From a virus (lineage: Duplodnaviria > Heunggongvirae > Uroviricota > Caudoviricetes): a DNA stretch of 5,809 nt. Each line of letters starts with the position of its first letter. Position 1 is the stretch's first letter. The DNA is taken from IMG/VR virus record IMGVR_UViG_2563366935_000009; one strand, given 5' to 3'. Below the pieces are notes generated by a model that worked only from the letters and a program-made list of their open reading frames with translations, had not been told where the DNA came from and did no database searches. Positions 1,480 through 3,267 of this stretch are shown here, in pieces. The translations under genes and the position numbers were made by a program.

Positions 1480-1507
1480 AACGCTTCACTCGAGGCGTTT
1501 TCGTTAT
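1480..1507 (+). terminator. Second hairpin with a U-rich tail (weaker terminator)
   Basis: AACGCTTC / GAGGCGTT stem (8 bp with one G-U pair), ACTC tetraloop, followed by TTCGTTAT. It lies immediately upstream of the cIII-like RBS. Confidence 0.4.
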
Positions 1508-1531: not shown

Positions 1532-1702
1532 ATGCAACAGTTCGCTATTGCAGGGGCGGCATCGGTTCGCCCTTTCAACCCGATTTTATCGGTACAGCAT
1601 TCACGAAAAAACATTTTAACCGGAGCAGACTTTAAACAACCAAGAATGAAAAGCTTGCTCGAAAAGCTTTGGGATATTTTGAAACAACAAGGCCGTCCAT
1701 GA
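1532..1702 (+). CDS. cIII: cIII-like small protein (56 aa), a putative FtsH-inhibitor family member
   Basis: RBS AGGAG at 1521-1525, ATG 1532. The N-terminus MQQFAIAG and the segment SLLEKLWDILKQQG resemble lambda CIII (MQYAIAG ... SLLERITRKLRDGWKRLIDILNQPG, from memory). Its position after N and the tL terminators matches lambda cIII. Confidence 0.5.
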   Translation: MQQFAIAGAASVRPFNPILSVQHSRKNILTGADFKQPRMKSLLEKLWDILKQQGRP

Positions 1703-1857
1703 GTTTTACGGATAACTGGTCAGACGAAGAATTCATTCGTCAGATAAAAGAATTAATCGGTAACGAAGGAGATATTCATGTCACTTGCAACCACAGTGAA
1801 GGAGAGCAAGTTACAGAGACGCATGTACACGCAGAAAGCTCTCTGGTATCGCCATAA
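1699..1857 (+). CDS. Small strongly acidic hypothetical protein (52 aa), in the kil/gam-equivalent position
   Basis: ATG 1699 overlaps the cIII-like stop (ATGA). The product MSFTDNWSDEEFIRQIKELIGNEGDIHVTCNHSEGEQVTETHVHAESSLVSP has about 11 acidic and 2 basic residues. There is no strong RBS; translational coupling is likely. Confidence 0.45.
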   Translation: MSFTDNWSDEEFIRQIKELIGNEGDIHVTCNHSEGEQVTETHVHAESSLVSP

Positions 1858-1958
1858 TGGTGACCGCGAAGGAATGCGGGTATGCCTTAATTTGTCCCGA
1901 GTCGAAGTATTAAATCAGCGTTATTTCCTTGGGCCGTGTCCATTCTGAGAGCAATCAT

Positions 1959-2564
1959 ATGAGCAAAGAATTTTACGCAAGACTGGCAGCTATTCAGGAG
2001 AATCTGAACGCGCCAAAGAATCAGTACAACTCATTCGGCAAATATAAATACAGAAGCTGCGAAGATATTCTTGAAGGCGTTAAGCCGTTACTGAACGGTC
2101 TGTTTTTATCAATCAGCGATGAAGTTGTGTTGATTGGTGATCGGTATTACGTGAAAGCCACGGCAACTATTACCGATGGCGAAAACAGTCATACGGCAAC
2201 CGCTCTTGCACGAGAGGAAGAAAGCAAGAAAGGAATGGATTCTGCACAAGTTACGGGAGCTACAAGCTCTTATGCACGCAAGTATTGCCTCAATGGTTTG
2301 TTCGGCATTGATGATGCGAAAGATGCAGATACAGACGAGCATAAACATCAGCAGAACGCAGCAGCAAAGCAATCAAAACCATCACTTACACCTGAACAGG
2401 TTCTAAAAGCATTCACTGACGCAGCAATGCAGAAAAACACCGTAGAAGAGCTTAAACAGGCGTTCGCCAAAGCGTGGAAGATGCTCGAAGGGACGCCGGA
2501 GCAGCACAAAGCGCAGGACGTTTACAACATCAGACGAGACGAATTAGAAGGGGCAACTGCTTAA
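1959..2564 (+). CDS. erf: Erf-family single-strand annealing recombinase (201 aa)
   Basis: The translation from ATG 1959 (MSKEFYARLAAIQENLNAPKNQYNSFGKYKYRSCEDILEGVKPLLNGL ... SSYARKYCLNGLFGIDD) matches the P22 Erf sequence as I recall it almost residue for residue at the N-terminus. The track start at 1929 is a TTG extension. Confidence 0.85.
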   Translation: MSKEFYARLAAIQENLNAPKNQYNSFGKYKYRSCEDILEGVKPLLNGLFLSISDEVVLIGDRYYVKATATITDGENSHTATALAREEESKKGMDSAQVTGATSSYARKYCLNGLFGIDDAKDADTDEHKHQQNAAAKQSKPSLTPEQVLKAFTDAAMQKNTVEELKQAFAKAWKMLEGTPEQHKAQDVYNIRRDELEGATA

Positions 2565-2947
2565 TGGCACATTCGATTACAGTAAGACTAAACAAACCCG
2601 CAAGAGAGTTTCAGGGCGGGGAAAATATCGGATTCAACATCCGTGCTGGCGTTCAGTATTACGATCGCCAGACAAAAAAGAAAGAATGGACAAACTACAG
2701 CGCCGTTGTATTTGCCAAGCCGGGAGCGCAAGCGGATTACTATCGTAGCGTTCTGGTTGAAGGAGGCATTGTAGAAATTACCGGAGAAAACATCAGGGTT
2801 GATGTTTATCAGGGGCAAAATGGTCAATCAATCACTCTTGAATTACTGAATGCAAAGATTGGATTTGCAACTTCAGGAAACAGCCAACAGCAGCAAAGTA
2901 GCAATCATCAAAATAATCCTGAATACGACGATTCCATCCCATTCTGA
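2564..2947 (+). CDS. ssb: SSB-like single-stranded DNA-binding protein (127 aa) with an acidic C-terminal tail
   Basis: ATG 2564 overlaps the erf stop (TAATG). The OB-fold-like core (EWTNYSAVVFAK ... GGIVEITGENIRVDVYQGQNGQSITLELL) is followed by a Gln/Ser-rich linker and a C-terminal PEYDDSIPF, resembling the E. coli SSB tail DDDIPF. Confidence 0.65.
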   Translation: MAHSITVRLNKPAREFQGGENIGFNIRAGVQYYDRQTKKKEWTNYSAVVFAKPGAQADYYRSVLVEGGIVEITGENIRVDVYQGQNGQSITLELLNAKIGFATSGNSQQQQSSNHQNNPEYDDSIPF

Positions 2948-2970: not shown

Positions 2971-3267
2971 ATGCCAGCGCCTTTGTATGGTGCGGATGAC
3001 CCGCGCCGCTGTTCCGGCAATTCCGTATCGGAGGTGCTGGATAAATTCAGAAAAAACTACGATCGAATAATGTCTCTACCGCAGGAAACGAAAGAGGAAA
3101 AGGAATTTCGCCACTGTATATGGCTTGCAGAGAAAGAAGAACGCGAGCGAATTTACCAGACATCAATCCGACCATTCCGCAAAGCCACATATACCCACTT
3201 CCCTGAATATATCGACCCGCGCCTGCGTAATTACCGCTCACGCTATGGCGCTATCAGTAATGACTGA
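2971..3267 (+). CDS. Hypothetical basic protein (98 aa); positional candidate for an Abc2-like anti-RecBCD function
   Basis: RBS AAGGA at 2959-2963, ATG 2971. Directly downstream of the erf-ssb module, where P22 carries abc2. The product is proline-containing and basic. The family assignment is not verified. Confidence 0.55.
   Translation: MPAPLYGADDPRRCSGNSVSEVLDKFRKNYDRIMSLPQETKEEKEFRHCIWLAEKEERERIYQTSIRPFRKATYTHFPEYIDPRLRNYRSRYGAISND

Follow-up and report, generated by a model that had tools for sequence, protein, structure and literature searches.

A short acidic reading frame upstream of the prophage gene erf carries an Arf-like N-terminal module and overlaps a second small gene

Introduction

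The short acidic reading frame that follows a cIII-like gene in an Escherichia coli prophage raises a simple question: is it a genuine gene and, if so, which part of its product is likely to act? The frame, here termed ORF A, lies in a stretch of 5,809 nucleotides (IMG/VR virus record IMGVR_UViG_2563366935_000009; the window). It begins with an ATG at position 1699 and ends with a stop codon at 1855–1857, and its product, MSFTDNWSDEEFIRQIKELIGNEGDIHVTCNHSEGEQVTETHVHAESSLVSP, has 52 residues.

An initial annotation of the window proposed that this product is a DNA mimic or an analogue of the phage proteins Gam or Kil. The acidity is as described there, with 11 Asp/Glu against 2 Lys/Arg and a net charge of −9, and both the ATGA overlap between the cIII stop and the ORF A start and the weak ribosome-binding site (Shine–Dalgarno AAGG, 1689–1692) are present in the sequence. 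As the window contains 70 ORFs of at least 30 aa, a 52-aa ORF is unremarkable per se. Comparative data nevertheless indicate that the 5′ third of ORF A is truly coding. The original observation is partly confirmed, and its interpretation in terms of a DNA mimic, Gam or Kil is mostly unsupported.

Operon setting of ORF A

The window covers the early left (PL) operon of an E. coli prophage of the lambdoid type (Table 1). Its left edge, upstream of the N gene, is occupied by a piece of IS3 OrfA, where related prophages have the repressor region. Two terminator-like hairpins precede cIII, and the HK97 record carries a putative terminator annotated at the equivalent place. The 250 nt that extend from ORF A to the stop codon of a second small gene, ORF B, are 100% identical to prophages of E. 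coli ATCC 11775, S88, APEC O1 and others, and matches to this stretch were found in 1,101 of 5,426 complete E. coli genomes. RefSeq PGAP annotation includes neither ORF A nor ORF B (for ORF B, in E. coli ATCC 11775).

ORF A had been placed directly before the recombinase gene. This does not hold, as ORF B intervenes and is the true neighbour of erf. The statement that no Gam homologue is visible in the window is literally true, but the window does encode Abc2, the P22-type functional counterpart of Gam with anti-RecBCD activity. Between erf and abc2 lies a gene for an SSB-like protein whose C-terminus, ...EYDDSIPF, resembles the acidic tip by which bacterial SSBs recruit partners. SSB-like proteins of this HK97 gp40 type carry the name SSB-1b (PMC12315714).

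Table 1. Features of the window and the evidence for each.
Feature	Position	Strand	Evidence or remark
IS3-family transposase fragment	1–150	−	N-terminal part of OrfA, HTH_Tnp_1 E=4e-5
N-type antiterminator	559–858
HK97 gp45-like protein	867–1337
Two terminator-like hairpins, T-runs after each	1442–1459 and 1480–1499	+	between gp45-like gene and cIII
cIII-like gene, 56 aa	1532–1702	+	phrog_550 CIII E=1e-22; same gene annotated CIII in HK542
ORF A, 52 aa, net charge −9	1699–1857	+	phrog_2123 E=3e-41
ATGA start/stop overlap, cIII/ORF A	1699–1702	+	sequence
Arf-type N-terminal module, ORF A codons 1–22	1699–1764	+	purifying selection, hhalign, AF2 helix
Shine–Dalgarno AAGGAG of ORF B, inside ORF A (encodes conserved 'EG')	1766–1771	+	sequence
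ORF A/ORF B overlap, 80 nt: ORF A residues 27–52, ORF B residues 1–27	1778–1857	+
ORF B, 56 aa	1778–1948	+	phrog_1723 E=9e-36; family alignment; AF2
erf, single-strand annealing protein	1959–2564	+	PF04404 ERF E=3.5e-44
SSB-like protein, HK97 gp40 type	2564–2947	+	phrog_44 SSB E=3e-29; TIGR00621 weak
abc2, anti-RecBCD protein	2971–3267	+	PF11043 Anti-RecBCD_p2 E=4.3e-62, 206.8 bits
Ea-type genes	beyond 3267

The ORF A family and its contexts

Homologues of ORF A occur in 77 phage records, including Sf6, HK022, HK97 and CUS-3. In 29 of 30 distinct family forms, the start overlaps the preceding gene, be it cIII or kil, as ATGA or GTGA. ORF A was intact in 79 of 80 loci, a sample collected by a scan with ORF B, confined to loci with the identical protein, therefore biased for ORF B and used only to assess ORF A integrity. 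The GTDB scan returned 8 loci and a profile search of a representative library 26 clusters, and the family is apparently narrow within the reach of HMMER. Sequence searches with ORF A against Pfam, NCBIfam and PDB, and with 13 family members against Pfam, gave no match that reached threshold. The initial annotation is upheld in that ORF A is probably a real gene, is coupled to cIII and lies in that part of the early left operon which serves recombination.

What the family members share is their N-terminus. The N-terminal ~17–22 residues (MSFTDNWSDEEFIRQM...) lead ORFs with differing tails and in differing contexts, and follow the pattern M-S-F-T-D-N-W-S-D-E-E-F-I-R-Q-(I/M)-K-E-L-I, with a family core motif of W-S-D-E/D-E/A-F-I-R-x-M-K-D/E-L. 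A very common 35-aa form stands before a 102-aa gene that is followed by RecT, and a 60-aa form stands before an AAA_22/Sak4-like gene and Abc2. Forms of 32–34 aa have K/P/Q-rich tails, further forms have 51 and 54 aa, and an A-like N-module also heads Rad52-like and Erf modules.

Several arrangements were observed alongside these forms. In RecT-type modules (L006–L011, 3089–3397; L110, 1586–1897), a conserved, uncharacterised protein of 102–103 aa comes after the 35-aa Arf-like ORF and occupies the slot of ORF B. In L121, these two ORFs stand before a PD-(D/E)XK nuclease (DUF3799). In the ORF A homologues P0001 and P0027, the conserved helix contains the 7-residue unit FIRQMKE twice or three times in tandem (MSFTDNWSDEEFIRQMKEFIRQMKEFIRQMKELIG...). 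P0014, an 80-aa protein present on 4 contigs, carries an arginine-rich peptide of the lambda N type (Pfam N36) joined in frame to ORF A from its residue 6 onward, and implies that a deletion has brought N and ORF A together in some prophages.

Relationship of the N-terminal module to P22 Arf

The P22 protein Arf assists homologous recombination of the phage without being essential (PMC12315714), and its molecular function is described as unknown (PMC12315714; PMC9836394). Genetic evidence dating from 1991 shows that it stimulates Erf-dependent recombination and phage growth (Poteete et al. 1991, cited in PMC12315714). Residues 7–16 of ORF A, WSDEEFIRQI, match the Arf N-terminal motif (W/F)-x-D-(D/E)-(A/E)-F-I-x-(L/Q)-(M/I). 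The Arf C-terminal motif, NLAAERQNP-x-I-x-W-x-EFAG, is absent from ORF A.

Direct comparison of the two proteins gave a faint signal. The Pfam model Phage_Arf (PF17585) matched neither ORF A at E≤1 nor 13 family members at E≤10, and the PHROG Arf profile gave a weak match to ORF A (E=0.041). Aligned directly, the ORF A and P22 Arf families scored 18.4–18.6, with a weak hhalign probability of 12–17%. The corresponding column-shuffle null was 8.7 ± 2.0; the observed score was reached by 0/300 and 1/300 shuffles and so exceeded 599 of 600.

A stronger link was provided by bridge proteins, which were found by a viral-contig scan with the L106 variant. These proteins have 52 aa; their N-terminus is of the ORF A type and their C-terminus is that of P22 Arf (MQHEFSDEEFIALISPEIEEEVEQQINLAAERQNPIIGWDEFAGYYS), an example being L139 (MIVAERWDDDAFIRLMADLILADPDERDEPVNLAAERQNPIISWAEFAGDFT). 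They score 40–49 bits against PF17585, for which the cut-off is 27, and align with the P22 Arf family over their full length (hhalign 99.1%, E=8.5e-19). The ORF A family in turn aligns with the bridge proteins over residues 1–22 (hhalign 95.9%, E=5.6e-9). By way of the bridge proteins, the N-terminal module of ORF A is homologous to the N-terminus of P22 Arf. A protein 88% identical to ORF A, P0017, is publicly labelled 'accessory recombination function protein'. Because the Pfam model failed and the C-terminal motif is absent, ORF A is classed as a truncated, Arf-related variant and not as a full member of the family. If the C-terminal motif carries Arf activity, ORF A may be devoid of that activity.

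Selection by reading frame

ORF B is in the +1 frame relative to ORF A and overlaps its last 80 nt. Substitutions were counted by the Nei–Gojobori method with the diverged loci L105, L106 (Pseudocitrobacter), L099, L095, L096 and L107. Over codons 2–20 of ORF A, comparison of the window with L106 gave a pS of 0.885 and a pN of 0.214. For the 13-codon core, 18 diverged haplotypes gave a pS of 0.78 versus a pN of 0.20; in two control frames, the ratio was 1.13 and 2.44. Correspondingly, the peptide WSDDAFIRLMKDLM is written in at least seven synonymous DNA versions. The comparison of the window with L099 showed no selection signal for ORF A (pS 0.41, pN 0.40).

Within the overlap, the two frames behave differently. 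Frame B had a pS of 0.73–0.92 and a pN of 0.11–0.31 in five comparisons with the window (0.91 and 0.20 with L106), and purifying selection on ORF B is strong throughout, the overlap included. Frame A had a pS of 0.14–0.26 and a pN of 0.28–0.36, an excess of pN over pS such as an out-of-frame reading free of selection would be expected to show. The two ORFs form an overlapping, or overprinted, gene pair in which frame B is constrained over the shared 80 nt and frame A is not. On these counts, constraint in ORF A is limited to its N-terminal ~22 residues.

Not all conservation of the N-module can be credited to selection. In E. coli, ORF A has the same first 49 nt whether its context is Erf, RecT or Sak4, so part of the conservation in this species is attributed to recent mosaic exchange. 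Such identity across recombination modules suggests a recombination joint, and ORF A could accordingly be vestigial or structural: a remnant of a mosaic joint, or a frame kept open so that ribosomes ending cIII proceed to ORF B, in either case giving a functionless peptide. Its weak Shine–Dalgarno with ATGA coupling, the loss of the Arf C-terminal motif, the omission by PGAP and the existence of ORF B without ORF A in several lineages would fit such an origin. However, the N-module is under purifying selection at the amino-acid level in diverged lineages in which synonymous change is saturated, and ORF A is intact in nearly all of the loci picked on ORF B identity. Furthermore, ORF B has a strong Shine–Dalgarno of its own and needs no coupling, and the A/B junction shows neither an RNA folding signal (z = −0.28) nor an Rfam match. 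A functionless ORF A is therefore considered unlikely.

Structure and charge of the ORF A product

The AF2 model of ORF A contains a single helix at residues 9–20 (nt 1723–1758), predicted to be amphipathic, and the remainder is low-confidence coil (pLDDT 63). Residues 27–52, HVTCNHSEGEQVTETHVHAESSLVSP, are encoded by the overlap with ORF B. Across the ORF A family, net charge ranges from −11 to +2. In L160 and L162, A-like and B-like genes are adjacent and overlap by just 4 nt. Given these adjacent forms, the lack of constraint in frame A and the occurrence of ORF B without ORF A, the acidic C-terminal half of ORF A is best seen as an unconstrained, predicted disordered and incidental extension into ORF B.

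This has direct consequences for the proposal that ORF A is a DNA mimic or nuclease inhibitor, an acidic polypeptide that would inhibit RecBCD, a different exonuclease or a restriction enzyme of type I and thereby protect linear phage DNA. The proposal is not new: Wilkinson et al. 2022 (PMC9836394) considered P22 Arf (net charge −11) a possible mimic because it is small and acidic. It draws on the charge of −9 in 52 aa and on the acidic tails of many family members, such as DDDSDSE. The tail of ORF A is, however, out-of-frame ORF B sequence, and the same conserved core occurs at a net charge of 0 to +2 in the 32-aa forms. The conserved element is a 13-residue, predicted amphipathic helix with no charge array. 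Similarity to the Gam, Ocr, ArdA and gp5.9 families was not found, and Pfam, NCBIfam and PDB sequence searches gave no membership of Gam, GamL or Anti-RecBCD_p2. The suggested analogy with Gam also fails in that ORF A has no homology to Gam or Abc2, and anti-RecBCD activity is already supplied by the Abc2 encoded in the same operon. Mimicry of DNA by ORF A, conceivably in a disordered state, is disfavoured and given a low probability.

ORF B, a second small gene beside erf

The Shine–Dalgarno of ORF B, AAGGAG, is near-perfect, lies 6 nt 5′ of its ATG within ORF A and is retained in the diverged locus L099. The family alignment shows a conserved N-terminus, MSLATT.KES. AF2 predicts a helical hairpin (pLDDT 92; helices 7–27 and 30–51), the first helix of which is encoded by the overlap. 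Homologues occur in L095–L099, L106, L107 and L160 (1581–1763), and more distant relatives of 60 aa were detected (hhalign 96%). In L095–L098 and L107, ORF B stands without ORF A, because frame A contains stop codons. The annealing-protein genes that ORF B immediately precedes belong to at least three families (Erf, Rad52-like and AAA_24/Sak4).

ORF B has no Pfam, NCBIfam or PDB sequence match, and fold searches of BFVD and PDB returned generic helical hairpins only, none at E≤0.001. A kinship with Kil, noticed by eye from a GD..M pattern, was dropped, as the fold searches gave no match at E≤0.001. ORF B may be an unrecognised component of the recombination module.

Public records contain forms in which the two frames are joined. 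HK97 (L001, 1901–2152) differs from the window (1699–1948) in having two additional single bases, separated by 7 nt, which create Gp42.1 and are absent in CUS-3 and HK542. Both ORFs also bear the label 'recombinase' (PHROGs 2123 and 1723; RefSeq records of HK97, HK106, Sf6, Sf101 and mEpX2). No evidence in support of this name was found, and it looks like a propagated label.

Such joined forms invite the reading that ORF A and ORF B are halves of one gene, either expressed as an ~83-aa fusion through +1 frameshifting or split by a mutation or sequencing artefact. HK97, with its single 83-aa ORF, and the public A–B fusions P0007, P0030, P0040 and P0059 would fit it, but the fusions are rare, join at differing positions and come mostly from single contigs. 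A programmed frameshift joining A and B was rejected on the grounds of this rarity and of the differing join positions. The split arrangement is seen in all 80 IMG/VR loci with full-length matches and also in CUS-3 and HK542. ORF B has its own Shine–Dalgarno and conserved N-terminus and stands alone elsewhere, and A-like genes without ORF B exist (in RecT and AAA_22/Sak4 contexts). This suggests that the A–B fusions reflect sporadic indels or sequencing errors and not a programmed event, and a single split gene is very unlikely.

The weakest reading, that ORF A is a Kil-type inhibitor of host cell division, draws on position only (kil of lambda and P22 lies between cIII and the recombination genes) and is contradicted by the lack of a match to Lambda_Kil (PF06301), KilR or P22 Kil and by a separate, recognisable kil (PF06301) that immediately precedes this ORF in HK97, CUS-3 and many prophages with a RecT context, which leaves it hardly credible.

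Proposed role of ORF A

The reading that is favoured here, with modest confidence, is that ORF A is probably a genuine small PL-operon gene, a truncated variant of P22 Arf that works through its N-terminal helix as an adaptor. Translation of ORF A would start by ATGA coupling to cIII. By analogy with the action of Arf for Erf in P22, the N-terminal helix may serve as a small protein-binding adaptor that aids recombination dependent on the annealing protein. Since the module precedes Erf, RecT, Rad52-like and Sak4-like modules, a partner specific to Erf is improbable; a host factor of replication or recombination that all of them share would be the likelier one. The last 26 codons of ORF A represent the 5′ end of ORF B read in another frame, in place of the Arf C-terminal motif, and the acidic tail of this allele would be an incidental appendage and not the active part.

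A broader proposal can be formulated, although we consider it rather unlikely. The 13-residue helix, W-S-D-D/E-A/E-F-I-R-L/Q-M-K-D/E-L, might be a portable adaptor shared by Arf and by proteins of 32–60 aa at the head of lambdoid recombination modules with any of the annealing proteins (Erf, RecT, Rad52-like or Sak4), docking on one common host factor (RecBCD, SSB or a replisome component) and thereby licensing recombination, with ORF B as a second, universal accessory subunit. If this were so, Arf would gain a molecular mechanism and recombination modules two new core components.

For the reading of ORF A as an Arf-related gene, the wider family of mini-proteins is informative in that its members have only the short N-terminal helix in common, which narrows the site of activity and argues for a target that is not specific to Erf. 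The comparison has also brought to light ORF B, a conserved gene with a predicted structured product beside the annealing-protein gene. The acidic tail that first drew attention to the locus is best taken as a by-product of gene overlap.

Comparison with known systems

Among the small proteins encoded near cIII, Kil of lambda and P22 resembles ORF A in size and in lying downstream of cIII. The two show no homology, and kil coexists with homologues of ORF A in HK97, CUS-3 and RecT-type prophages. Lambda Gam and P22 Abc2 are likewise small proteins encoded in the same operon segment beside the recombinase, with no sequence relation to ORF A. Gam forms a folded dimer that mimics DNA, and RecC is the protein bound by Abc2 (PMC9836394; PMC12315714).

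Counterparts of both ORFs are recorded in other phages. HK97 Gp42.1/Gp42, CUS-3 ECRS218_0052/0053 and hypothetical proteins of HK022, Sf6 and HK542 represent the same genes, with 86–100% identity and in the same position. Their annotation differs: both ORFs are annotated in CUS-3, only ORF A in HK542, and an 83-aa fusion, Gp42.1, plus Gp42 in HK97. None of the HK97, CUS-3, HK022, Sf6 and HK542 records draws a link to Arf, and a literature search on HK97 gp42 found nothing relevant.

P22 Arf (47 aa, PF17585) is the characterised relative of ORF A. Like ORF A, it is tiny and acidic, its gene lies in the PL operon with c3/kil on one side and the annealing-protein gene on the other, its start overlaps the upstream gene, and its N-terminus contains (W/F)-S-D-E-E-F-I. 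Unlike P22 Arf, ORF A lacks the C-terminal motif, falls below the Pfam threshold and has a C-terminal half that overlaps another gene. P22 arf adjoins erf and P22 has no ORF B, whereas here ORF B lies between ORF A and erf. The resulting gene orders are c3–kil–arf–erf in P22, cIII–A–B–erf in the window and cIII–kil–A/B–erf in HK97.
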